Of a stretch of DNA of 64,000 bases, positions 10,564-22,436 are shown in pieces. Numbering within the stretch: position 1 is the stretch's first letter; every line of letters begins with the position of its first letter. A program made the position numbers and the translations under genes. Under the pieces are notes generated by a model. That model was not told where the DNA came from. It worked only from the letters and a program-made list of their open reading frames with translations, and ran no database searches. Source of the stretch: an uncultured Syntrophaceae bacterium (lineage in GTDB: Bacteria; Desulfobacterota; Syntrophia; Syntrophales; UBA2185). Location of the stretch: assembly GCA_964541605.1 (NCBI GenBank), contig CAZIQY010000005.1, positions 1,220-65,219 of the forward strand, in the 5' to 3' direction.

Positions 10564-10788
10564 ATGCTCACGGCAAAAGTTTTATCCAAGGGGCAGGTGG
10601 TCATTCCCAAGGAAGCCCGCGATAAAATCGGACTTGTCACAGGCGATCGTGTAGAGGTAAAAGTCACGGATGAAGGACTGTTGATTCTTCCCCTGAAGAA
10701 AGGGATCACAGACGACTATGCCGGTGTTGTCAGGGGCAGACTGTCTCTGGATGAACTGGAGCGGCTGTATGCTGAACAGCCTGAATGA
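10564..10788 (+). CDS. AbrB/SpoVT (MazE-like) family antitoxin
   Basis: LSKGQVVIPKEARDKIGLVTGDRVEV is the swapped-hairpin AbrB motif. It is 74 aa and overlaps the following PIN gene. Confidence 0.85.
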   Translation: MLTAKVLSKGQVVIPKEARDKIGLVTGDRVEVKVTDEGLLILPLKKGITDDYAGVVRGRLSLDELERLYAEQPE

Positions 10789-11278
10789 TTTCGACAGTAC
10801 CGAAGAAATCTTTGTCGATACAAATATTTTTCTGCACCATGCTTTTGCCGCCAATCAAAATTCCATCGCTTTTCTGAAAAGGGCGGAAACGCGCTCCCTG
10901 AGACTTTACACCTCCACGCTGGTTTTGGAAGAAATGATTTGCAAACTGATGATGCAGGCGTCATCGAATTTTTTGGATCGCGTCACGACGGATCATATCA
11001 AACAGTTTCTCCAGGACGAGGGGAACAGACAGAAAATCATGGAGCCTGTGGGAAAATATCTGGAATACATACGGACGCTACAGTCCATCTGCCTGCAGGT
11101 TCTCGATTTCTCGGAGAAGGATATGCGGGACGCCGTTGGGATGATCTCCCTTTATGGTCTGATGCCGGCTGAAGCAGTCCATATCGCGATCATGTCCCGC
11201 AGGAAAATCAGGCATCTGGCGACCGGCGACCGGGATTTTACCGTCGTTGAAGGCATCACCGTCTGGTCGCCGGGGTGA
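10769..11278 (+). CDS. vapC: PIN-domain ribonuclease toxin (VapC-like)
   Basis: IFVDTNIFLHH (first acidic residue), LVLEE and ATGDRDF are the conserved PIN acidic positions. The ATG at 10769 overlaps the antitoxin end by 20 nt. Confidence 0.8.
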   Translation: MLNSLNDFDSTEEIFVDTNIFLHHAFAANQNSIAFLKRAETRSLRLYTSTLVLEEMICKLMMQASSNFLDRVTTDHIKQFLQDEGNRQKIMEPVGKYLEYIRTLQSICLQVLDFSEKDMRDAVGMISLYGLMPAEAVHIAIMSRRKIRHLATGDRDFTVVEGITVWSPG

Positions 11279-11357
11279 TCCGACAGGGATTGACATTCGG
11301 GCGATCAAACCGGTATCCATACGCTGGCGGTACGGATTTGGCCATAAGAGGATTGCA

Positions 11358-14300
11358 ATGCCTGTTCTCAAACGTAAGCAGACCGTACTAAAACTCTTGG
11401 AGCAACTGCGGGGGCTCGATACCCTGAAGGAACTGTGCTGGACGGAGCTGAATTACGAGCGCGAAAACAAGCCGCTCAGCATGCGCAGCTGGCCGGACTC
11501 TGCCAGAAACGCGCTGCTCGACGATCCCATCCTGTTTGCGAGCGGCGGCGAAGATCATGCGTTTCATGTGGTGTATTGCCGCCTGGCATCCGATAGCCTG
11601 CAGAGAAATCTTGAGCGGCCAATCGTCAGTCAGTTGATCCGTGAGCACCCTTACGGCCTGTTTGTATTTTCCGACACAGCGCAATCCGCCTGGCATTTCC
11701 TGAACATCAAGTATGACGAAAAGGCGGAGAAGCGGCGCCTTTTCCGACGGATTACCGTGCGCGCCGACGGCGGTTTGCGCACAGCCGCCGAGCGGCTGCA
11801 GATGCTGGATCTTGCATCGTTCGGGAAAGAGCTGTTCGGCATTCCCGCCCTGGAGATTCAAAAACGCCACGATGACGCCTTCGACGTCGAATCGGTTACC
11901 AAGGCGTTTTACAAGGAACTCGCCAACTGGTACTTCTGGGCGCTGAAGCACGTTCATTTCCCCAAGGACGCGCCAAAGGAGGCTGACGGGCACGACCACA
12001 TCGGTGTGATTCGCATGATCACACGGTTGATCTTCTGCTGGTTCGTAAAGGAAAAAGGACTGATTCCCGAAACGCTGTTCAATCAGCGCCGCCTGAATGA
12101 ACTGTTAGATGGATTCGCACCGGACAATAACGCTGGGAGCGGCTCCGTCTTCTATAAGGCAATCCTGCAGAATCTTTTCTTTGCCACTCTGAACACCGAG
12201 ATGGACAAGCGCGGCTGGGCGCGGGATGAGCAGAACTTCATGGCGCACAGTCTTTACCGTTATCGCGATCTGTTCAAGAAGCCCGATGAGGCGCTGGCAC
12301 GGTTTAAGAACATTCCCTTCCTCAACGGCGGCTTGTTCGAGTGTCTGGACAAGGATCTGGGCGAAAGCGCCAGGCCGCGTTACGTGCGCATTGACGGCTT
12401 TTCCAGACGGCCGGACAGCCAACCGGTTGTCCCGGATTTCCTGTTCTTCGGATCTGAGCGCGAAGAAGACCTCAGCGCGGACTACGGCGACAAAAAGTTC
12501 AGGAAAGTCCGGGTGCGCGGGCTGATCGACACCCTTCAACGATACCGCTTCACGATTGAGGAAAACACGCCCATCGAGCAGGAAGTCGCCCTCGATCCGG
12601 AGTTGTCCGGCAAGGTGTTCGAGAACCTGCTTGCCGCCTACAACCCCGAAACCGGTGCCACCGCCCGCAAACAGACCGGCTCCTTTTACACCCCGCGCGA
12701 GATCGTGGATTACATGGTGGATGAGGCGTTGATCGCATTTCTGAAAGGAAGTTTTTCCACCGAGAACGCAGAGGCCGCGGAGAAGAGACTCCGGCGGCTG
12801 GTGTCGTGGGAGGAGAACGGCCACGATTTCGACAACCGGGAAACCGAAACGCTGATCACCGCGATTGACGGACTGAAGGCGCTGGACCCGGCAGTAGGCT
12901 CCGGCGCGTTTCCGATGGGCATTCTGCACAAGCTCGTGTTCATCCTGGGAAAACTCGATCCGCGCAACGAGCAGTGGGAACAACGGCAGATCCGGCGTGT
13001 GCGCGACGCCGTGGCCACGGCGGAGAAGATAGAAGACGCCGCCATCCGCGAGCGGACGGTCAGGGAACTGGAACAGCAAATCGTCGGCATCGAAGAGGCG
13101 TTTGAGCGCAACGAGCTGGATTACGGGCGCAAGCTCTACCTGATCGAGAACTGCCTCTACGGCGTGGATATTCAGTCCATCGCCGTCCAGATCGCCAAGA
13201 TGCGGTTCTTCATCTCGCTGATCGTTGACCAGCGGGCGGACCCGGACGCAGCAAACCTCGGTGTGCGCCCGCTGCCCAACCTGGAAACCAAATTTGTCGC
13301 CGCGAACACGCTGATCGGTATTGATCGCCCCGGTCAACAAATATTGCGGTATGACGACATTGCCGCCAAAGAGACGGAATTACGCAAAGTGCGGGAAAAA
13401 CACTTTAATGCGAGGACTCCTGCCAGCAAAGCCATGTACCGCGAACGAGACAAGAAACTCCGTTCTGAAATAGCAGCATTGCTCAAGAAAGATGGCTGGG
13501 GCGGTGAAGTCGCGAAAAAGCTTGCTGACTGGGATCCCTACGACCAGAACGCCTCCGCCTCTTTCTTCGATCCCGAGTGGATGTTTGGCGTGATGAAGGG
13601 GTTCGACATAACTATTGGAAATCCGCCCTACGTTCGTGCAGACGAACAATCCAACTGGAATCGCCGCCAGCGTGAACAAATCCTTGCCGGTGGAAACTAC
13701 GAGACGCTTTGGGAAAAGTGGGATCTCTTCGTACCTTTCATCGAAAAGGGCTATAAACTGCTCAGTCCCGGCGGCGTTACCACGCTCATCGTTTCCGATG
13801 CCTTCTGCCACGCCAAATACGCGCAGAAGCCGCAGAACTGGTTTCTCCAGCACGCCCGCATTCTGCGCCTCGACTTTTGCAGTGGCCTGCAAATTTTCGA
13901 TGCCGCTGTCCACAACCTCATTTACTTTTTTCAGAAGGCAGACGGTGCACGCAACGTTCCTAAACGCCGAGTTCACCTTGAGGAATTTGGTAACGTCAGC
14001 CTCCTGCCTTCTGATGAGCAATCAAAACTTACCTACCGAGCGTTCTTCCCGGAGGACCGAGAAGCAAGAATGGTTAGCGTCCCTGCAAAATCACTTGGAG
14101 AGATTTGCTACATTAGCGTTGGGATGGTCGTTCACGCAGACGAAAAAGTAGCGCAAGGCGCATTCGAGCTTGAGGATTTAGTTTCCGACCGAAGGGATGC
14201 CACGCATCCGTGCCGCTTTGTGGAAGGTAAGCACCTCGAAAAGTGGCTGCCATCGACGAACAAGTGGCTTGAATGGGGCACAGACCGTGCACCAAGCTTA

Positions 14301-14855
14301 TTCAGGCGACCAACGTTTCCCGAACTCTATTCTGTGACAGAGAAGATATTCACCCACCGGACAGCAGGTGAGGGACTACGCAGTTGCTATGATGAGGATC
14401 AGACGCTGTGCAACCACACGATCATGGTCTGTCTACCATGGCACGGACTGAAAGGAGTTCGCAATGCATCAATCAAGAAGTCGGCGCGTTACAAGGATGA
14501 ACGCACGCCACGCCCGGATTTACCCAAGCGGGAGGAACTGGAAGCCACCAGCCGCCGCTTTGTCGTGAAATATCTGCTCGGCGTGATGAACTCGACCATG
14601 GCGCGCGATTTCCTCCGTGCCAACCGCCGCAGCAACACTGACCTCTACCCGGATGATTGGAAAAAACTCCCCATCCCCGACGTTGATTCCTCCGCCCAGG
14701 AACCTATCATATCTTTAGTTGACCGCATCCTCGATGTCAAAAAGGCCGACCTATCTGCGGACACCTCGGCGATAGAGAAGGAGATTGACCGGATGGTATA
14801 TGAGCTTTACGGTCTGACGGAAGAAGAGATTGCGATTATCGAAGGGAGAGAATAA
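11358..14855 (+). CDS. Large gamma-class N6-adenine DNA methyltransferase (Eco57I / PglX / DrmMI-like architecture)
   Basis: It has motif X (TGSFYTPREIVDYMVDE), motif I (LDPAVGSGAFPMGIL) and motif IV (IGNPPYVRADE), followed by a long C-terminal TRD-like region. The start at 11358 (MPVLKRKQ) is preferred over the 11247 extension. Confidence 0.9.
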   Translation: MPVLKRKQTVLKLLEQLRGLDTLKELCWTELNYERENKPLSMRSWPDSARNALLDDPILFASGGEDHAFHVVYCRLASDSLQRNLERPIVSQLIREHPYGLFVFSDTAQSAWHFLNIKYDEKAEKRRLFRRITVRADGGLRTAAERLQMLDLASFGKELFGIPALEIQKRHDDAFDVESVTKAFYKELANWYFWALKHVHFPKDAPKEADGHDHIGVIRMITRLIFCWFVKEKGLIPETLFNQRRLNELLDGFAPDNNAGSGSVFYKAILQNLFFATLNTEMDKRGWARDEQNFMAHSLYRYRDLFKKPDEALARFKNIPFLNGGLFECLDKDLGESARPRYVRIDGFSRRPDSQPVVPDFLFFGSEREEDLSADYGDKKFRKVRVRGLIDTLQRYRFTIEENTPIEQEVALDPELSGKVFENLLAAYNPETGATARKQTGSFYTPREIVDYMVDEALIAFLKGSFSTENAEAAEKRLRRLVSWEENGHDFDNRETETLITAIDGLKALDPAVGSGAFPMGILHKLVFILGKLDPRNEQWEQRQIRRVRDAVATAEKIEDAAIRERTVRELEQQIVGIEEAFERNELDYGRKLYLIENCLYGVDIQSIAVQIAKMRFFISLIVDQRADPDAANLGVRPLPNLETKFVAANTLIGIDRPGQQILRYDDIAAKETELRKVREKHFNARTPASKAMYRERDKKLRSEIAALLKKDGWGGEVAKKLADWDPYDQNASASFFDPEWMFGVMKGFDITIGNPPYVRADEQSNWNRRQREQILAGGNYETLWEKWDLFVPFIEKGYKLLSPGGVTTLIVSDAFCHAKYAQKPQNWFLQHARILRLDFCSGLQIFDAAVHNLIYFFQKADGARNVPKRRVHLEEFGNVSLLPSDEQSKLTYRAFFPEDREARMVSVPAKSLGEICYISVGMVVHADEKVAQGAFELEDLVSDRRDATHPCRFVEGKHLEKWLPSTNKWLEWGTDRAPSLFRRPTFPELYSVTEKIFTHRTAGEGLRSCYDEDQTLCNHTIMVCLPWHGLKGVRNASIKKSARYKDERTPRPDLPKREELEATSRRFVVKYLLGVMNSTMARDFLRANRRSNTDLYPDDWKKLPIPDVDSSAQEPIISLVDRILDVKKADLSADTSAIEKEIDRMVYELYGLTEEEIAIIEGRE

Positions 14856-14956
14856 AATTTTGCAAATGGCTCATCCGGTTCTTGCATACTTGTCCCGGGT
14901 GTCTTGCTCCTGCTATCTGTTTGATATAACCCACATGGAAATGCAGGTGTAAAAAA

Positions 14957-15964
14957 ATGGAAATTACGAAATCTCAGCTTATAAAGGAACCAAAATACTG
15001 GGGTCGCCATATCGTCATACTTGGGGCTGGGGCAAGTGTCGCATCGTTTCCTCACGGTGACGCTAATGGAAAAAGACTGCCGACGATGGATAACTTAATT
15101 GAGATGCTTGGTCTCGAATCGGCATTAGAACGGGGAGGGGTTAAGAATAGCCGTCGCAACTTTGAAGATCTTTACAGTGAGTTGTACGAGAATGATCCTG
15201 GATCACCATTTCTCAAAGAAATTGAGGAGATCATATATACTTATTTTGACAGTCTAAAACTCCCAGAATTACCAACCGTGTATGACCATTTATTGATGTC
15301 CCTTAGGCCCAAGGATATTGTTGCAACTTTTAACTGGGATCCATTCCTCTTTGATGCGTGGAATCGAAATAAGGATAAAGTTCCAGTTCCGGAGATTATT
15401 CACCTTCACGGCAACGTCCGCTTAGCGTATTGCCCAGAGCACCCTGTCTATGGTGAACACGGCATGTATTGTCCAGAATGTGATAGAGAGCTTATCCCCT
15501 CTCGGCTACTCTACCCTGTCGCAATGAAGAACTATGTCAACGACCCTTTTATCAAAACAGAATGGGAAGTTTTAAAGAAAGGTCTGCGTCAGGCAAGGAC
15601 CATAACAATTTTTGGCTATGGAGCACCGACTACGGATAAAGAAGCAGTTGATATTATGAATAGTGCATGGGACAAGGACAATCGATTAATCGAAAGAACG
15701 GAGGTCATTGATATAAAAGACAAAGAAGTCCTGTGGACGCAGTGGGAACCTTTTATAATAAGAACTTACCTTGATTGCCCTGAGAACTTTTATCAATCAC
15801 GTTTAGCAGACTATCCGAGAAGAACTTGTGAAGCGTTATTAGCTCAAACATTTTATGGCCAATGGGTTGAGAATAACCCCTTGCCATCGGATGCTAATTT
15901 TGATGAACTATTCCTTTGGCTAAAGCCATTAGTTGAGGCTGAGCATGTATTGGATGCTGTCTGA
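14957..15964 (+). CDS. Short SIR2-like (SIR2_2 family) protein with an inserted CxxH...CxxC zinc knuckle
   Basis: IVILGAGASVASFP (Rossmann start), VATFNWDPF (equivalent to the TTNYD motif, catalytic Asn), IIHLHGNV (catalytic His), CPEHPVYGEHGMYCPEC, and TIFGYGAPTTDKEAV. The gene is visibly AT-richer than its neighbours. Confidence 0.8.
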   Translation: MEITKSQLIKEPKYWGRHIVILGAGASVASFPHGDANGKRLPTMDNLIEMLGLESALERGGVKNSRRNFEDLYSELYENDPGSPFLKEIEEIIYTYFDSLKLPELPTVYDHLLMSLRPKDIVATFNWDPFLFDAWNRNKDKVPVPEIIHLHGNVRLAYCPEHPVYGEHGMYCPECDRELIPSRLLYPVAMKNYVNDPFIKTEWEVLKKGLRQARTITIFGYGAPTTDKEAVDIMNSAWDKDNRLIERTEVIDIKDKEVLWTQWEPFIIRTYLDCPENFYQSRLADYPRRTCEALLAQTFYGQWVENNPLPSDANFDELFLWLKPLVEAEHVLDAV

Positions 15965-16082
15965 GAATTTATAGAGGCTTTTAGTTCACAACTAAAGGGC
16001 GTCCAGCACGTCCGTTATTGAACTGGCCCCCGTCAAGTGAGTGGAGAAAGTCTTTTATCAGGAGAAGGAGAATCCCATTTTG

Positions 16083-16805
16083 ATGATACCAATTCAAGAC
16101 ACAACCAGTATTTTCAACATTTACTGTGACGAGAGCTGCCACCTGGAGCATGATCACCAGCCGGTGATGCTTTTCGGTGCCGTGTGGTGCCTTCAGGAAG
16201 AAGTTGCTCGATTCACCGAAGCTATTCGGAAGCTAAAGGAGAAACATCATGCAAGGGGCGAGTTGAAATGGTCGAAGGTTTCCGCCTCGCGGGAATCGTT
16301 CTTCCTGGCCATGATCGATCTTTTCTTTTCAAGTCCTGGTCTCAATTTCCGATGTCTTATCGTCAACGACAAGGCGAAGTTGGATCATGCCTATTACAAT
16401 CGCGGAAGCCACGATTCCTTTTACTACAAAATGTACTATTACCTGCTCCGCAACATTATTTCCGATATGAATCGGTATGACATCTATCTGGATATCAAGG
16501 ATACCAGAAGTCAGTTGAAAATTGATTTCCTCCACGAGGTGTTGTGCAACAGCTTGAATGATTTTGACCACAGGGTAATCCGCAGAATCCAGCATGTTCG
16601 ATCTAAGGAGGTGGAACTGCTTCAACTGGCCGATTTTTTGATGGGGGCAATTGCATATAAAAACAGAAATCTTATTGAAAACAAAACAAAAATGGTGGTT
16701 ATCGATAGGATCTGCCGGTTATCCGGGAGGAGCCTGCAAACCAGCACTCCGCCGTGGGAAGAGAAATTCAATCTCTTTATTTTCACGCCGAGGGAGACAT
16801 GCTGA
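16083..16805 (+). CDS. DUF3800 family protein
   Basis: IFNIYCDESCHLEHD ... GELKWSKVS ... LQLADFLMGAI is the characteristic DUF3800 motif order. The track ORF starts with GTG at 16041. The ATG at 16083 lies downstream of AAGGAG. Confidence 0.8.
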   Translation: MIPIQDTTSIFNIYCDESCHLEHDHQPVMLFGAVWCLQEEVARFTEAIRKLKEKHHARGELKWSKVSASRESFFLAMIDLFFSSPGLNFRCLIVNDKAKLDHAYYNRGSHDSFYYKMYYYLLRNIISDMNRYDIYLDIKDTRSQLKIDFLHEVLCNSLNDFDHRVIRRIQHVRSKEVELLQLADFLMGAIAYKNRNLIENKTKMVVIDRICRLSGRSLQTSTPPWEEKFNLFIFTPRETC

Positions 16806-17293
16806 TGGCAGATTTACCGGATTTTTTGCCTCCAATTATTGATTTAGGGGGAACATGGGAGGAAATCCTATATCGACTGTATTCGGTTTTCCGCCATGAT
16901 TTTAAAGAAAGCTCTGTTAGACACAATGGTATGAGGGTTATTTTCGACGGCAGGATCATGCCGGACGGTCAGGGAAAGGAAGAGGGTTTCTGGCATGTCG
17001 TTTCAGGGAAGGATACGGAATGCAAAGAAAGGTTGATCGATTATCGCCGGGCTGAGCGCCTGCCTTGGGCAAGACCCATGATGGAAAGCTCGGCAAGAAA
17101 TGAAATCAAGGTCTTCGATTACGATCATGGCACTAAGGATGTCGGCGTGAGACGTTATGTCTGGTTGGCCGATTATGATTATGTACTTATTCTCCAGAAG
17201 AAGAAAAGGGCCATGTTTTGGGTGACTGCTTATTATATTGATTCGAATCGGGGGCGAAGGGATCTGATGCGGAGGTATGAGCAAAGGGCCTAA
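16805..17293 (+). CDS. Hypothetical protein (about 163 aa), translationally coupled to DUF3800
   Basis: Its ATG overlaps the DUF3800 stop (TGATG) and has a GAGGGAG RBS. I recognise no family. The track ORF starts at 16754. Confidence 0.6.
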   Translation: MADLPDFLPPIIDLGGTWEEILYRLYSVFRHDFKESSVRHNGMRVIFDGRIMPDGQGKEEGFWHVVSGKDTECKERLIDYRRAERLPWARPMMESSARNEIKVFDYDHGTKDVGVRRYVWLADYDYVLILQKKKRAMFWVTAYYIDSNRGRRDLMRRYEQRA

Positions 17294-17353
17294 AAAACAG
17301 CGACCGCCTTTCCAAGCGGCCCCCGAGCTCCTGCCACCTCCATTGGTGGATGA

Positions 17354-17375
17354 GTTGGTTTACATGTAAACCAAC
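17354..17375. repeat. Perfect 22-bp palindrome gttggtttaca|tgtaaaccaac in the non-coding gap of the island
   Basis: Read directly from the sequence. It lies 61 nt after the stop of the 16805-17293 gene. Confidence 0.7.
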
Positions 17376-17658
17376 CCTTGCCGTTTGTCAAGGACATTAT
17401 TTTTCAGATCATGAAAGCATACTTGATAATGTTCCGCTCGATTGCGGACGGGATTCGCCGTTGCGACAAGAAGGTTCAGATTGCGCTTTGCAAAGAGGTG
17501 TCGCAGGTTTGGAAAGCCGTTGGTTTGGAAGGAAAAGGACTGTTTTGCAACTGCATCGGTTGACGGATGATGGGATTGATGCGCGTATGCCATACTCTAT
17601 AGAAATATCTTGTATTTATTGGCAAATTATTCAATAATTCTGCTCAAGGACAATCATC

Positions 17659-18039
17659 ATGGTTGATATCGATAAACAGATTTCCTATTGGAAGGAAAAC
17701 GCCGACGAAGATTGGGAAGTTGCTCAGCAACTCCTTGAAAGCGGTCGAATCCGCCACGGTTTGTTTTTCGCTCACCTGGCACTGGAAAAGATGCTCAAGG
17801 CGCTTGTTTGCAAAAATACCGGTGATCTGGCACCTCGAATCCACAACCTGAACCGCCTGAGCGGGTTGGCTGGTGTTGTGGCAAATTCAGAGCAGTTGGA
17901 CATTCTGGCGGAAATGAATGCATTCCATATTGAAGGACGCTACCCCGAAACGTTGACGAAGCCGCCAACGATAGAGGAAGCCGTCCGGTATATGAAGCGG
18001 GCAGAGGAGGTGCTTCGATGGTTAACGAGTCTGTCGTAA
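17659..18039 (+). CDS. HEPN domain protein (toxin-type partner of the following nucleotidyltransferase)
   Basis: It is 126 aa and helical. The pattern WEVAQQLLESGRIRHGLFFAHLALEKMLKAL ... IHNLNRL ... HIEGRYPE is typical of small HEPN proteins paired with MNT. Confidence 0.8.
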   Translation: MVDIDKQISYWKENADEDWEVAQQLLESGRIRHGLFFAHLALEKMLKALVCKNTGDLAPRIHNLNRLSGLAGVVANSEQLDILAEMNAFHIEGRYPETLTKPPTIEEAVRYMKRAEEVLRWLTSLS

Positions 18040-18353
18040 AAGGCGTTAGAAATTACCTGCGGGCCTTGCAGGATCAGGGACTGATCGTCAACTTCGGGGT
18101 GGTTTTCGGATCGCAGGTTCAAGGCATGTCTGATATGTGGAGCGATATCGATTTACTGGTTATTTCTCCCCGCTTCGATGATCTGCGGGAACGTGGAGAT
18201 ATTGATCTTCTTTGGCGTGTTGCAGCTCGCACCGATAACCGCATCGAACCGATCCCCTGCGGCGAACGGCAATGGATTGAGGACGATTCCAGCGCCATCA
18301 TTGAAATCGCCCGGCGCGAGGGCCAGCCGATCGCCATATCGGAAGACACATAA
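18018..18353 (+). CDS. Minimal nucleotidyltransferase (MNT) domain protein
   Basis: VVFGSQVQGMSDMWSDIDLLVIS is the GS-x(n)-DxD polymerase-beta-type NTase motif. It overlaps the HEPN gene by 22 nt. Confidence 0.85.
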   Translation: MVNESVVKGVRNYLRALQDQGLIVNFGVVFGSQVQGMSDMWSDIDLLVISPRFDDLRERGDIDLLWRVAARTDNRIEPIPCGERQWIEDDSSAIIEIARREGQPIAISEDT

Positions 18354-18355
18354 TC

Positions 18356-18409
18356 ATGCCTGCCCACGACATCATCGACAACCGCCGGAAAAAACTGGTG
18401 GATCATATC
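18356..18409 (+). pseudogene. Diverged duplicate of the first 18 codons of the PLD-SNF2 helicase gene
   Basis: Bases 18356-18409 and 19101-19154 are identical at 48 of 54 positions (hand alignment). MPAHDIIDNRRKKLVDHI aligns with MPAHDIIDNRQEKLVDHI, and the upstream ataatc is also shared. Confidence 0.65.
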
Positions 18410-18440
18410 GACTGTCTTGCGGCGAAAAAGGAAATAAACA

Positions 18441-18469
18441 TTGACAGGAGCTGTACGAAAAGAGATACT
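18441..18469 (+). promoter_or_regulatory. Candidate promoter of the phd-relE module
   Basis: TTGACA (18441-18446), a 17-nt spacer, then GATACT (18464-18469), 28 nt upstream of the RBS GAAGGAGG and the ATG at 18497. Confidence 0.5.
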
Positions 18470-18496
18470 TCCAAAAGTACAGATGAAGGAGGACGT

Positions 18497-18772
18497 ATGC
18501 CGAAAAGCCTGTCCATCATTGAAGCAAGAAAAAAACTGACGAATATTCCGGAACTTTTTGAGCAGGAGGCGGATCTGGACGTCGTCGCCATAACCAGGCG
18601 GGGAAAGCCGGTCATGGCCATTATGCCCTGGGAGCTTTACGAAGCCCTTGAGGAAACCCTGGAGATTTTGGGGGATGAGGCACTGATGATGCAACTTAGA
18701 GAAAGCATAGAGGAGCTGAAAGCAGGACAGCTTATCCCGTGGGAAGAAACCGGCGCCGGGGCGGGGCGGTGA
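18497..18772 (+). CDS. Phd/YefM family antitoxin
   Basis: MPKSLSIIEARKKLTNIPELFEQEADLDVVAITRRGKPVMAIMPWELYEALEETLEILGD is the Phd/YefM pattern. A strong RBS precedes the ATG. The track ORF (from 18356) adds the helicase-derived fragment. Confidence 0.85.
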   Translation: MPKSLSIIEARKKLTNIPELFEQEADLDVVAITRRGKPVMAIMPWELYEALEETLEILGDEALMMQLRESIEELKAGQLIPWEETGAGAGR

Positions 18773-19086
18773 TGTGGCCTGTTTTCATCACGCCGGCGGC
18801 GCAACGGATGCTTCAGGCAATTCCGGACGGGCGGATCAGGGGAAAGATCGGGGATGTCATTGACCGTCTTCGGCAGGACCCGGAAAAACAGGGGAAAGCT
18901 CTGTTGGGTGAGCTTGCGGGATACCGGAGTATTCGGGCCGTTGGGCAGCGGTATCGCATTGTCTACAAGGTCGAGAAAACGAGGGTGATCGTCATTGTCG
19001 TGGCTGTCGGCCTTCGTAAAGAAGGAGCAAAAAGAGGCATCTACGCCCTCGCCAGGAAACTTCTCCGCCTTCGGCTGACGGAGTGA
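18772..19086 (+). CDS. RelE/ParE family toxin
   Basis: GYRSIRAVGQRYRIVYKVEKTRVIVIVVAVGLRKE is the typical RelE/ParE C-terminal core. Its start overlaps the antitoxin stop (TGATG). Confidence 0.85.
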   Translation: MWPVFITPAAQRMLQAIPDGRIRGKIGDVIDRLRQDPEKQGKALLGELAGYRSIRAVGQRYRIVYKVEKTRVIVIVVAVGLRKEGAKRGIYALARKLLRLRLTE

Positions 19087-19100
19087 GGGAGGGATAATCT

Positions 19101-22100
19101 ATGCCTGCCCATGACATTATTGACAACCGTCAGGAAAAACTGGTGGATCATATCAACCGGATTCTTGACTCCAGCGACGCGGCGCGATTTGCCGTGGGTT
19201 ATTTCTTCCTTTCAGGACTGACGGCCATTTCGGAAAAACTCTCCCGCATCAAGGAATTACGGCTGCTCATCGGCAATACGACCAACCGGGAAACCCTGGA
19301 ACAGTTGGCCGAAGGGTATCACCGTCTGGAGATGGTTGCCGACGCTGCCGAGGCGGAGCGGTATCCGAAACGGAGCGACATCAGACAGATGTCGGTGGAG
19401 ACAACGTACAGCATCCGGACGGGCATGGAACTGATGGATCAGACGGACGAAGGGGAATCGCTGGTCAAATCCCTGGTGCGCATGATCGAAGAAAAACGCC
19501 TCAAGGTTCGGGTTTACATGCGGGGTCGTCTCCATGCGAAGGCGTATATCTTCGATTACGGCGCCGTTTACGACCGCAGCGGCAAACCTGTAAATCGTCA
19601 CGAAGAAGGAATCGCCGTGGTCGGCTCTTCCAACCTGACCCTCTCCGGCGTCACCCACAACACGGAACTCAATGTGATCGTCCAGGGAAACGACAACCAT
19701 GCAGAGCTTGTCCGATGGTTTGAAGACCTCTGGAAAGAGGCGCAGGAGTTCGACGAGACCCTGATGCAGGAGATGAAGGCATCCTGGGCGATAGCGCCGG
19801 TACGGCCCTATGACATCTACATGAAAACCCTCTATGCCCTGGTCAAGGACCGCATTGAAGGAGGAGACGATCAGGATGTTCTCTGGGATGATGAGATCAC
19901 GCGAAGACTGGCGGATTTCCAGAAGGTTGCCGTCAAGCAGGCTGTGCAGATCATCCGGGACTATGGCGGGGCTTTTGTATCCGACGTGGTGGGTCTTGGA
20001 AAATCCTATATCGGCGCCGCCATTGTCAAGCACTTCGAACGCGTGGAACACGCCCGACCTTTAATTATCTGTCCGGCAACGCTGGTCGAGATGTGGGAAC
20101 GCTATAACGAGGTCTATCAGCTCAATGCCCGGGTTCTGTCCATGGGGTATCTCCGGGAAAGGGACGACCAGCCGGTACAATTTCTCAAGGAAGAGGTAAT
20201 CTACCGGGATCGAAACTTCCTGCTTGTCGATGAAAGTCATAATTTCCGCTATGCCGACACCCAGCGTTACAAGATGGTGGAGGCATTCCTGGAGACAGGA
20301 AAGAAATGCTGCTTCATTACCGCCACCCCCCGGAACAAGAGCGCCTGGGATGTTTACTACCAGATGAAGCTCTTCCATCAGGATGACAAGACGGAGCTGC
20401 CCATAGATCCGCCCAATCTGAAAGAATATTTTCGCCTGATTGAAAAGAGAGAAAAAGACCTTCCCGACCTGTTGTCCAATCTTCTTATCCGCCGAACACG
20501 GAATCACATCCTTAAATGGTATGGATTTGACTCTGAAACCCATCGACAGATCGATCCTTCCCATTTCAGAGATTATCAAGACGGCCGACGCCGGGCTTAC
20601 GTCATGGTGGCGGGGAAGCACCAGTTCTTCCCCAAACGGGAGCTGGAAACGATTGAATACAGCATTGAAGAAACCTACCAGGGTCTCTATCACGAATTGC
20701 GCGGATATCTCGGCAAAGCCTCCCGGAAGGGACAGCCGGTCAAGCCGCCGCCCAACGAGCTCACCTATGCCCGATATGGCCTGTGGCATTATGTCGTCAA
20801 AGAGAAACAGAAAAAGGAGCCCTATGCCAGCCTCCACCGGGCCGGTTCCAACCTGCGCGGCCTGATTCGGGTTTTACTTTTCAAGCGCTTTGAATCGAGC
20901 GTTTATGCCTTCCAGGAAACGGTACGCCGTCTCTTGACTGTACATAAGCGATTCGTGGAAGCCCTTTCGCAAGGATTCGTACCCGCCGGGGAGGATGCCC
21001 AGGCCATCCTTTATGAACCGAATCAGGACGAAGAGCAGGACCTGATGGATGCCCTCCGTCAGGTCTCCGGCAAATACAATGTCGCCGATTTTGACCTGCC
21101 AAGACTGAAGGAACACATTGCTCACGATATCCGATTGCTGGAAAAGATGCTGAAACTAATCGATCCCATCACGCCTGATCAGGATGCCAAACTCCAGACG
21201 CTGATAAAAAAACTTAAGGAAAAGCCGCTGTTGGACGGTAAGCGGCTGATCTTTACCCAATACGCCGATACAGCACGATACATCTTTGAAAACCTTAATC
21301 CCGGGAGCGCGCGGCAGGATATTGACGTGATCTTCAGCGGAGACAAGAGCAAAGTCAGGGTTGTCGGGCGCTTCGCTCCCAAGGCAAACCCTGAATACCG
21401 CTTCACTGCTGGAGAGAAAGAATTGATGATGGTCGTTGCCACCGACGTCCTCGCCGAAGGTCTCAATCTTCAGGACTGCGACAAGATCATCAATTATGAT
21501 CTTCATTGGAATCCGGTCAGATTGATCCAGCGATTTGGTCGCATTGACCGGATCGGCTCGGAACACGATGTGGTCTATGGTTTCAATTTCATGCCTGAAA
21601 CCGGAATTGAGCGCAATCTCGGTCTCCGCGAGAAACTTCATCACCGCATTCAGGAGATTCATGATACGATCGGGGAAGACTCGGCTATCCTCGACCGATC
21701 TGAGCAACTGAACGAAGAGGCGATGTACGCCATTTATGAAAAGAAAGGCAGCCAGCTTTCGCTGTTCGAAGAAGAGGAGGAATTTCTGGATCTCAACGAG
21801 GCGGAAGAAATCATGAGGCAGTTGCGCCGCGACAATCCTACGGAATATGATCGAATTGCCGGCCTTCGGAACGGCATCCGTACGGTAAAACCTTCAGCAA
21901 CCAAGGGACTCTATGTCTTCTGCCAGGCGGGCAGGTACCAGCAGCTATTCCTTTTAAACGCAAGGCGGGAGATTACCTCCAGAGATATACCCCGCATCCT
22001 CGGCGTGATCAAATGCGATCCTGAACTGAAAGCGCTCGATATTCCGCCCGGTTATAACGCCGACGTGATGCGTGTCAAACGACAATTTGCAGAGACGGTC

Positions 22101-22436
22101 AAGCAACGACAGGCGGAACTGGAACACACGCTATCGTTGTCACAGGGACAGCGTTATGTCCTCCGTGAACTGAGAGTATTGTTTGGTCTTAGTAATGACG
22201 ATGAAATAAAGATCCAAATTAACATTCTTGAAAAAGCCTTTCGCGGTCCGATGACCACGGCGATCAACCGTGAACTAAACCACATCCGTCGCAATGGGAT
22301 GACAGGTGAACATCTTATGCGGGCATTGACGGAGCTCTATCATCAGCACAGCATGAGGGATTGGTCGGAGCGACGCAACCGGAGATCTGAAGATCAGATC
22401 ATACCGAAGATCGTCTGTAGCGAGGGACTGGCGTAA
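19101..22436 (+). CDS. PLD-family nuclease fused to an SNF2-family helicase (1111 aa)
   Basis: The N-terminal single HKD motif is RLHAKAYIFDY plus GSSNLTLSG. The SNF2 core comprises VVGLGKSYIG (I), LLVDESHNFR (II), ITATPRNKS (III), VATDVLAEGLNLQ (V) and QRFGRIDRIGS (VI). About 300 aa at the C-terminus are unassigned. Confidence 0.9.
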   Translation: MPAHDIIDNRQEKLVDHINRILDSSDAARFAVGYFFLSGLTAISEKLSRIKELRLLIGNTTNRETLEQLAEGYHRLEMVADAAEAERYPKRSDIRQMSVETTYSIRTGMELMDQTDEGESLVKSLVRMIEEKRLKVRVYMRGRLHAKAYIFDYGAVYDRSGKPVNRHEEGIAVVGSSNLTLSGVTHNTELNVIVQGNDNHAELVRWFEDLWKEAQEFDETLMQEMKASWAIAPVRPYDIYMKTLYALVKDRIEGGDDQDVLWDDEITRRLADFQKVAVKQAVQIIRDYGGAFVSDVVGLGKSYIGAAIVKHFERVEHARPLIICPATLVEMWERYNEVYQLNARVLSMGYLRERDDQPVQFLKEEVIYRDRNFLLVDESHNFRYADTQRYKMVEAFLETGKKCCFITATPRNKSAWDVYYQMKLFHQDDKTELPIDPPNLKEYFRLIEKREKDLPDLLSNLLIRRTRNHILKWYGFDSETHRQIDPSHFRDYQDGRRRAYVMVAGKHQFFPKRELETIEYSIEETYQGLYHELRGYLGKASRKGQPVKPPPNELTYARYGLWHYVVKEKQKKEPYASLHRAGSNLRGLIRVLLFKRFESSVYAFQETVRRLLTVHKRFVEALSQGFVPAGEDAQAILYEPNQDEEQDLMDALRQVSGKYNVADFDLPRLKEHIAHDIRLLEKMLKLIDPITPDQDAKLQTLIKKLKEKPLLDGKRLIFTQYADTARYIFENLNPGSARQDIDVIFSGDKSKVRVVGRFAPKANPEYRFTAGEKELMMVVATDVLAEGLNLQDCDKIINYDLHWNPVRLIQRFGRIDRIGSEHDVVYGFNFMPETGIERNLGLREKLHHRIQEIHDTIGEDSAILDRSEQLNEEAMYAIYEKKGSQLSLFEEEEEFLDLNEAEEIMRQLRRDNPTEYDRIAGLRNGIRTVKPSATKGLYVFCQAGRYQQLFLLNARREITSRDIPRILGVIKCDPELKALDIPPGYNADVMRVKRQFAETVKQRQAELEHTLSLSQGQRYVLRELRVLFGLSNDDEIKIQINILEKAFRGPMTTAINRELNHIRRNGMTGEHLMRALTELYHQHSMRDWSERRNRRSEDQIIPKIVCSEGLA

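Follow-up and report, generated by a model that had tools for sequence, protein, structure and literature searches.

Methylation-based defenses that combine a methylase, a helicase and a nuclease (type III and type ISP restriction–modification (RM), DISARM, BREX, MANTIS) differ in the way the DNA methyltransferase (MTase) is loaded and the nuclease is licensed. Here we consider one locus in a stretch of 64,000 nucleotides (nt) from an uncultured Syntrophaceae bacterium (contig CAZIQY010000005.1; hereafter, the window), where a large N6-adenine MTase and a fusion of a single-HKD (PLD) nuclease with an SNF2 ATPase (hereafter, the helicase) are encoded on the same strand and flank a series of toxin–antitoxin (TA) and other defense genes (hereafter, cargo). 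The closest characterized relative of this pair is found in MANTIS, also called BREX-related type 2 and formerly Gao_RL, which consists of MtsA, a DUF499 AAA+ ATPase, MtsB, a small DUF3780 protein, MtsC, an N6-adenine MTase, and MtsD, an HKD/PLD–SF2 effector, the relatives of the pair being MtsC and MtsD. The MANTIS MTase hemimethylates asymmetric 6-bp sites, a swap of the MtsC target-recognition domain (TRD) switches the specificity of methylation and of MtsD restriction alike, and MtsD acts as a dimer forming one PLD active site. In type III and type ISP systems, the MTase or its TRD provides site recognition to an SF2 ATPase–nuclease, the asymmetric sites are hemimethylated, and ATP is required for communication along DNA.

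An earlier note on this DNA, made from the letters alone, had proposed that the two genes constitute a minimal ATP-dependent, methylation-based restriction pair. Comparative genomics supports this proposal, the restriction function itself being a prediction from sequence: the two genes form a conserved unit in many bacteria and archaea, no third partner recurs with them, and we consider it likely, though by no means certain, that the pair in the window makes up an ATP-dependent, methylation-based restriction module of two genes.

Pairing of the Methyltransferase and the Helicase

Both open reading frames (ORFs), MTase motifs X, I and IV, the single-HKD PLD domain with a complete SNF2 core, and approximately 4.2 kb of cargo were located where the earlier note had placed them (Table 1); the space between the genes spans positions 14856–19100, that is, 4245 nt. 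The MTase ORF could start at TTG 11247 or at ATG 11358; as the DNA homology to three related loci, detected by blastn, begins at 11340–11358, we accept the latter start and the protein length of 1165 amino acids (aa).

A scan of GTDB species genomes yielded 77 loci (denoted below by L and a number). Of the 45 loci in which the helicase start is intact and 5 kb or more of upstream sequence is available, 41 encode an Eco57I-type MTase upstream of the helicase and in the same orientation, and the same arrangement, with varying genes in between, is seen in nine out of nine metagenome contexts. The co-localization of the two genes, suggested earlier as a check, thus holds, both in these loci and in distant bacterial and archaeal relatives with either gene order. 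The exceptions are L045, with a Gabija-like pair of an OLD ATPase and UvrD upstream of the helicase, L075, with a UvrD helicase and an unrelated MTase, L061, where the helicase is internally deleted, and L017, with no MTase within 10 kb. The distance from the MTase stop to the helicase start, measured in 51 loci, ranges from about 0 nt to 8.5 kb with the median of 1240 nt (at most 100 nt in nine loci, 0.1–1 kb in 11, 1–3 kb in 17, and more than 3 kb in 14).

Distant relatives of the helicase at 27–33% identity, residing on annotated plasmids, retain the pairing, and both gene orders occur among them. In Haloferax alexandrinus, the MTase is followed by the helicase at 6 nt; in Thermococcus profundus, the genes are in the same order with TA cargo of three genes, including an AbiEii-family one, in between; in Pelobacter propionicus, the order is reversed and the genes abut; and in Rhodococcus ruber, the pair is found on a 17.7-kb plasmid. 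In Synechocystis PCC 6803 plasmid pSYSX (L090, 43696–51129), the order is also reversed compared to the window: the helicase (29% identity, 8e-91) is followed by a hypothetical gene and a VapC toxin gene, forming a TA pair, and then by the MTase (1100 aa, 47.8–51.1 kb, 6e-24); the helicase match ends near aa 884, and the tail is absent. The MTases of distant relatives, including the one from Synechocystis, are collinear with the window MTase, N-terminal domain included.

Domain Anatomy of the Methyltransferase

The order of motifs X (TGSFYTPREIV, aa 440–450, nt 12675–12707), I (LDPAVGSGAFP, aa 509–519, nt 12882–12914), and IV (NPPY, aa 755–758, nt 13620–13631) assigns the MTase to the gamma class; motif IV, in the form (N/D/S)PP(Y/F/W), is retained in 33 out of 33 family members. 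The family profile matches CamA (5.7e-51) and BseCI (8e-41) over the region after motif IV and the TRD; its middle part matches PglX/BrxX (about 1e-19) and MmeI (1e-17), and its first ~340 positions match nothing. The motif order and these matches show the gamma-class N6-adenine MTase followed by a C-terminal TRD that is characteristic of type IIG/IIL enzymes.

The MTase is unevenly conserved, with the median identity of 55% for aa 1–200, 28% for aa 201–430, and 26% for the catalytic core. For the C-terminal 295 aa, similarity could be detected in no more than three out of 32 family members, and the protein ends in a conserved EIDxxVYxLYGLTxEEI motif. Since the MTase C-termini are hypervariable while the helicase tail is about 67% conserved, this presumed TRD is, by analogy with MANTIS, most likely the seat of specificity. 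A conserved effector combined with variable MTase C-termini fits one effector served by many specificities.

The earlier note saw no nuclease motif in the MTase, and this is borne out for the N-terminal domain, which has no invariant acidic residue in its beta-strands according to the family alignment, and no match in Pfam or in a profile search of the PDB sequences. Its AlphaFold2 model (predicted local distance difference test, pLDDT, 87.6) is a mixed alpha/beta unit, for which Foldseek finds nothing in PDB below E = 0.07, the matches being weak ones of the restriction-endonuclease fold. Residues Ser105, Trp112, and Asn116 are invariant, Lys118 is conserved in at least 90% of sequences, and position 106 is Asp or Asn, so that the pattern S105-(D/N)106 ... 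N116-x-K118 occupies the place where D...ExK would be expected. The domain may hence resemble a D-x9-E-x-K nuclease motif stripped of its acidic residues. A sequence search with this domain returned only short fragment proteins and is uninformative on other architectures.

Domain Anatomy of the Helicase

The helicase contains PLDc_2 (aa 25–211), SNF2-rel/ResIII (aa 270–471), and Helicase_C (aa 700–819) Pfam domains. The HKD motif RLHAKAYIFDY (aa 143–153, with His145, Lys147, and Asp152) is accompanied by GSSNLTLSG (aa 175–183, GSSN being aa 175–178), and all SNF2 motifs are present, namely, Walker A GLGKS, DESH, TATP, and QRFGRIDRIG (aa 810–819). Across 40 homologs, the conservation of the HKD, Walker A, DESH, and motif VI is 90% or higher. 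The nearest solved ATPases by the family profile are Sulfolobus SNF2/Rad54 and RapA.

Over 5800 homologs were found, the best 120 of which are 73–94% identical to the window protein, nearly all of them 1109–1119 aa long, and come from Syntrophales, Planctomycetota, Terriglobia, Chloroflexota, and Thermodesulfovibrionales; the identity of 73–77% across phyla suggests horizontal transfer. A search of viral contigs yielded no pattern match and no sign of phage carriage. The conservation is even, the median identity to the window protein being 75% in the PLD domain, 77% in the N-lobe, 72% in the insert, 81% in the C-lobe, and 67% in the tail.

This tail was earlier suggested to be the specificity or MTase-docking module. 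The specificity role gains no support: the tail is conserved, its AlphaFold2 model is mediocre (pLDDT 66.4; aa 1–75 of the fragment are disordered), and neither a Foldseek match nor a nuclease match was found for it. The specificity is better sought in the MTase C-termini, and the conserved N-terminal 200 aa of the MTase are a better candidate for docking. The tail is retained in the Haloferax and Thermococcus relatives and missing in the Synechocystis/Pelobacter clade. An inactive restriction endonuclease and an alpha+beta domain have been suggested to follow the SNF2 core in related helicases (PMC12839542). Overall, the profile and structure searches that had been advised for both proteins produced matches to Eco57I, CamA/BseCI, SNF2/Rad54, and RapA, and left the helicase tail and the N-terminal 200 aa of the MTase unmatched.

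In three loci, the helicase has internal deletions (aa ~161–496 in L061, ~382–843 in L073, and ~353–800 in L082), and in L073 the MTase is likewise fragmentary; these loci resemble decaying copies of the system. Two contigs of metagenome-assembled genomes (MAGs) labeled Akkermansia muciniphila (L028, L029) contain a full-length helicase homolog (72% identity) with C-terminal MTase fragments upstream and, if the binning is right, the family may extend to human-gut bacteria.

Search for a Third Partner and Membership in Known Systems

To look for recurrent partners, ORFs from the flanks (about 10 kb) of 67 non-redundant loci were clustered; no family outside the cargo occurs in more than four loci. 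The Pfam scan of 59 large flank ORFs revealed no DUF499 and no DUF1998, the most common family being VWA (four ORFs). DrmA, DrmB, and DUF499 genes are absent from the window, in agreement with the earlier note as far as DrmA and DrmB are concerned, and these two are absent from the flanks of the 67 loci as well. DUF499 is also missing from the cargo, DUF3780 was observed neither among the Pfam matches of the window ORFs nor among those of 121 cargo ORFs, and no small neighbor is conserved.

The helicase has an N-terminal HKD/PLD domain fused to an SF2/SNF2 ATPase and is paired with an N6-adenine MTase, as in MANTIS. It is partly similar to DrmD (PADLOC, 9e-37; NCBIfam NF038317, 144 bits with the cut-off 610) and to the PLD anti-phage protein NF042964 (163 bits, cut-off 1100), presumably the MtsD family, and the MTase weakly matches the models of DrmMI (PADLOC, 6e-15, over a partial stretch) and PglX (NCBIfam NF033452, 33.6 bits, cut-off 500). 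Given that MAG contigs do not show the rest of the genome, one could regard the pair as an incomplete or split copy of MANTIS or class 1 DISARM, whose missing ATPase or helicase parts act in trans. However, all model scores are far below the curated cut-offs, and neither protein passes any NCBIfam cut-off; no DUF499, DUF3780, or DUF1998 is encoded within about 10 kb in the 67 loci or in the 64-kb window; the Rhodococcus plasmid carries just the pair; and the pairing persists in Bacteria and Archaea, which fits a self-contained unit. A split copy thus seems improbable. Membership in MANTIS is rejected for the lack of MtsA and MtsB and the low NF042964 score, in class 1 DISARM, for the lack of DrmA/DrmB and the low DrmD and DrmMI scores, and in BREX, for the low PglX score and the absence of PglZ and BrxC from the window.

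Alternatively, the genes could be two independent neighbors in a defense island, namely, a self-sufficient type IIG enzyme and a stand-alone PLD–helicase of the SauUSI kind. Indeed, the best PADLOC matches of the MTase are type IIG models (1e-55), weak similarity to HSDR_N has been reported for the Synechocystis protein Slr6050 (Hagemann et al.), the N-terminal domain gives the weak restriction-endonuclease-fold matches described above, and MtsD is structurally similar to SauUSI. On the other hand, matches to the type IIG models begin only at aa ~374, leaving out the nuclease part, and the N-terminal domain lacks invariant acidic catalytic residues; the two genes keep a fixed strand and order, abutting in nine loci and in distant relatives; the pair stays when the cargo changes; and a nuclease that depends on modification would, beside an active MTase, be liable to attack self DNA. 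We consider independent neighbors unlikely. As individual candidates, type IIG/IIL (MmeI-like) enzymes are rejected because the MTase N-terminus has no catalytic acidic residues and both the IIG models and MmeI match only from aa ~370, and SauUSI-type type IV enzymes, because the MTase is linked and SauUSI is matched by the helicase neither in the sequence search nor by the family profile. A type III system is rejected as well, the nuclease being an N-terminal PLD domain rather than a C-terminal PD-(D/E)xK one.

The pair hence falls outside the named types, being neither DISARM nor MANTIS/BREX-related type 2, and no curated family model fits it, as had been anticipated. The best PADLOC match of the helicase is C3a139 "HKD+Snf2" (2e-82), a label that stems from a 2018 census of genes adjacent to type III CRISPR loci and does not denote a defense system. 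In the open-access literature, we found only this label and DUF499-centered systems, and no description of a two-gene system of a PLD–SNF2 protein and an MTase.

Cargo and Insertion Relics

Filling of the space between the MTase and the helicase with TA and defense genes is the rule in the family, and the cargo is not incidental. About 80% of loci contain it, and no less than 85% of its ORFs share the strand of the pair. Among 121 cargo ORFs from the window and related loci, the Pfam census identified minimal nucleotidyltransferases (MNT; 14), HEPN (six), ParE (six), OLD-type ATPases (five), spore-photoproduct-lyase-like (SPL-like) radical-SAM proteins (four), Mrr_N (four), DUF3644 (three), PIN (three), SIR2 (two), and DUF3800 (two); PADLOC adds PDC-S09, PDC-M05, and the Old family.

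The cargo is replaced while the pair is retained. In L012, L015, and L049, the helicase gene is 81–91% and the MTase gene is 83–88% identical to the window at the DNA level, yet the cargo differs; the homology stops at the borders of the pair, at 11340–11358 and 22426–22435. The G+C content is 0.44–0.47 across 14–18 kb of the window, compared to 0.53–0.57 in both large genes.

Further, the cargo is bordered by copies of the core-gene ends. Compared to L012, the window has an extra ~835 nt (17578–18413), that is, the HEPN/MNT pair and, after it, a 57-nt duplicate of the beginning of the helicase gene (the start codon and the first 19 codons) in frame before the Phd antitoxin gene. Such 5′ relics are found in eight loci (the window, L010, L033, L044, L045, L055, L075, L086), 0.6–3.5 kb upstream of the true start and beside TA cassettes. 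Similarly, MTase 3′ relics encoding the terminal EIDxxVYxLYGLTxEEI motif are observed downstream of the true stop in at least seven loci (L012, L013, L014, L023, L025, L028/L029, L033). The window also contains a non-coding 149-nt relic of the 3′ end of an SPL-like radical-SAM cassette, which matches L011, L012, L013, L015, L049, and L081 and itself includes a degenerate MTase 3′-end relic; the end of a cluster c3 protein matches the window ORF 17378–17563. As the radical-SAM gene is intact in L011, L012, L013, and L049, an earlier cargo at the window locus was replaced. Judging by their anatomy, the relics may be junctions of homology-facilitated illegitimate recombination, with one crossover inside a conserved core gene and a second, illegitimate one, so that a cassette would enter and the end of the recipient gene would be left behind; the same event might sometimes bring a new MTase allele.

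Given this cargo, the pair might mainly serve as its sensor or scaffold, in the way EcoprrI restrains PrrC, with TA and Abi proteins as backup effectors freed when phage proteins inhibit the complex. This would agree with the frequency of the cargo, its strand bias, and its enrichment in HEPN/MNT, ParE, OLD-type ATPases, PIN, and SIR2, and published accounts of HEPN and Abi genes embedded in RM, BREX, and BREX-related loci interpret them in this way. However, cargo is lacking in nine loci and in the Haloferax and Pelobacter relatives, and the pair hence works without it; no cargo family is obligatory, the largest one comprising 14 out of 121 ORFs; and the insertion relics point to opportunistic capture. 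A primary sensor role therefore has a low probability, and under the restriction-module reading the cargo of the window would be secondary, consisting of TA and defense cassettes captured by recombination anchored in the two conserved genes.

Several features of individual cargo genes may be added. The 335-aa protein has a glycine-rich GAGAS motif near the N-terminus and a zinc-ribbon-like CPEC...C stretch. A complete PDC-M04 pair (PDC-M04A: PADLOC 5e-92, Pfam DUF3800 1.7e-17; PDC-M04B: PADLOC 1.4e-44) sits inside the operon, in the low-G+C stretch. The Phd/YefM domain covers aa 51–124 of ORF 18356–18772 (nt 18506–18727), the likely start being Met47 at 18494, and a Phd/ParE cassette is directly upstream of the helicase also in L012, L073, and L081. 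The MTase 3′ relics often follow cargo genes, one per gene, and L025 resembles an array of cassettes, each with a relic. The PIN gene is the left edge of the defense island and is outside the core pair; its homologs lie between the MTase and the helicase in L031, L065, and L067, and hence one cargo family can reside either outside or inside the pair. The remaining large ORFs of the window encode housekeeping redox and metabolic functions.

Table 1. Features of the window, and MTase 3′ relics in related loci (positions as numbered in each locus).
Feature	Locus	Positions	Strand	Basis or comment
PIN-domain protein	Window	10718–11278	+	Pfam PIN 6.3e-9; directly upstream of MTase
Gamma-class N6-adenine MTase, Eco57I type, 1165 aa	Window	11358–14855	+	Pfam Eco57I 3.7e-28
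MTase N-terminal domain, aa 1–200	Window	11358–11957	+	Conserved; no family assigned
MTase C-terminal region, aa 871–1165, presumed TRD	Window	13968–14852	+	Hypervariable
335-aa cargo protein	Window	14957–15964	+	No Pfam, PADLOC, or NCBIfam match
PDC-M04 candidate defense pair	Window	16041–17293	+	M04A 16041–16805; M04B 16754–17293
SPL-like radical-SAM cassette 3′ relic, non-coding, 149 nt	Window	17429–17577	+	blastn, 80–88% identity
HEPN and MNT TA pair	Window	17659–18039, 18018–18353	+	Pfam HEPN 6.3e-21, NTP_transf_2 3.1e-6
Helicase 5′ relic, 57 nt	Window	18356–18412	+	Direct repeat D1, 88% identical to 19101–19157
Phd/YefM antitoxin and ParE-family toxin	Window	about 18494–19086; toxin 18739–19086	+	PhdYeFM 7e-11, ParE_toxin 1.3e-8
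HKD(PLD) nuclease–SNF2 ATPase fusion, 1111 aa	Window	19101–22436	+	Pfam PLDc_2, SNF2-rel_dom, ResIII, Helicase_C
PLD nuclease domain, single HKD	Window	19173–19733	+	Pfam PLDc_2, aa 25–211
Helicase C-terminal tail, aa 822–1111	Window	21564–22433	+	No fold assigned
MTase 3′ relic	L012	5771–5863
MTase 3′ relics	L013	5204–5290, 7229–7327
MTase 3′ relic	L014	4815–4901
MTase 3′ relics	L025	7889–7981, 8459–8652
MTase 3′ relics	L028	874–1044, 1392–1562
MTase 3′ relic	L033	10160–10228

Proposed Mechanism

From the domain content, intact catalytic motifs, and synteny, we infer that the pair has restriction activity, which could proceed as follows. The MTase would recognize a short asymmetric site via its variable C-terminal domain and methylate one adenine, thus providing the self mark. 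At unmodified sites, the site-bound MTase would recruit or license the HKD–SNF2 protein, making the cleavage methylation-sensitive and directed by the MTase. As each HKD–SNF2 protein has only one HKD motif, it would have to pair with a second copy to form one nuclease active site, and would then track along DNA by the SNF2-type ATP hydrolysis and cut. The N-terminal domain of the MTase would contact the highly conserved helicase and could replace the AAA+ loader required by MANTIS.

A more far-reaching proposal, which we advance tentatively and hold to be distinctly less probable than the restriction module as such, is that the family is a widespread, unnamed, self-sufficient two-protein relative of MANTIS, in which a degenerate nuclease-like N-terminal domain replaces the AAA+ loader and directly licenses a dimeric HKD–SNF2 protein, and whose operon is a cassette trap, with homology-facilitated illegitimate recombination anchored in both conserved genes continually loading new TA and defense genes and new MTase specificities.

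Some data on Synechocystis bear on the restriction module. Slr6050 (M.Ssp6803IV, 1100 aa, encoded on pSYSX) has been tentatively assigned the GA(m6A)GGC specificity, and the slr6050 knockout could not be fully segregated (Hagemann et al.); that study is confined to the MTase, with no mention of the helicase. The failure to segregate is what cognate restriction activity would cause, and the neighboring PLD–SNF2 homolog could explain it, although the link to the helicase is our own.

Several points weigh against the restriction module. The paired Synechocystis MTase appears to be Slr6050 by the plasmid, length, and position only, and the assignment of Slr6050 to GAAGGC is itself tentative. The MANTIS MTase cannot methylate without AAA+ MtsA and MtsB, and hence a loader-free version is not guaranteed to work alike; also, the MtsD nuclease has not been reconstituted in vitro. 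No fold could be assigned to either the MTase N-terminal domain or the helicase tail, and the correlation between the identities of the N-terminal domain and of the helicase (rho 0.39–0.74) is confounded by shared ancestry and provides no evidence of co-evolution. Most loci are MAG contigs, so that partners may be encoded elsewhere in the genome, and restriction and methylation in the clade of the window are predicted from gene content.

As for a role outside defense, be it epigenetic regulation or RapA-like transcription- or repair-coupled remodeling, the closest solved ATPases are RapA and the Sulfolobus Rad54-like SNF2 protein, and the C-terminal half of the MTase has its best structural relative in CamA, an orphan regulatory MTase, but the intact HKD nuclease domain, the defense and TA genes in the surroundings and the cargo, the hypervariable TRDs, and the helicase conservation across phyla, suggestive of horizontal transfer, make such a role very improbable.

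If the pair is indeed a restriction module, it would be a simpler system than MANTIS, where methylation needs two extra proteins, for studying the handover from a site-bound MTase to a translocating nuclease. Members of the family are common among environmental bacteria and archaea, and Akkermansia MAGs contain them as well; the family is probably under-counted, as the tested defense-annotation libraries do not cover the pair as a system. The cargo insertions marked by relics provide a concrete and testable picture of defense-island growth inside an operon.

Comparison With Known Systems

Defense genes embedded in restriction operons are known from PrrC in EcoprrI, the hma operon hotspot, and backup effectors in BREX and BREX-related loci. 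The window family likewise has TA, Abi, and HEPN genes inserted into a methylation-based system, between its core genes; here, however, the insertion junctions carry duplicated core-gene ends, of which we found no description in the open-access literature.

The earlier description of the pair as DISARM-like or type III-like holds only in part. Class 1 DISARM (DrmD, DrmMI, DrmA, DrmB, and optional DrmC) likewise combines an SNF2 helicase, a PLD nuclease, and a large Eco57I-type MTase; in contrast, the pair lacks the defining DrmA/DrmB, and its PLD and SNF2 domains form one polypeptide. With type III and type ISP systems, the pair shares the logic proposed for it here, but it is not type III, as its nuclease is an N-terminal HKD/PLD domain, not PD-(D/E)xK, and its MTase is gamma-class Eco57I-like, not Mod; it differs from type ISP in consisting of two polypeptides.

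The best comparator is MANTIS. Both feature an N6-adenine MTase and a PLD–SF2/SNF2 effector, and in both, the effector is highly conserved and the MTase TRD varies. The difference is that MANTIS has MtsA and MtsB, whereas the window and the 67 related loci have neither, and the window MTase has its own conserved N-terminal domain. By analogy, the pair probably works similarly to MANTIS without being a member of it.

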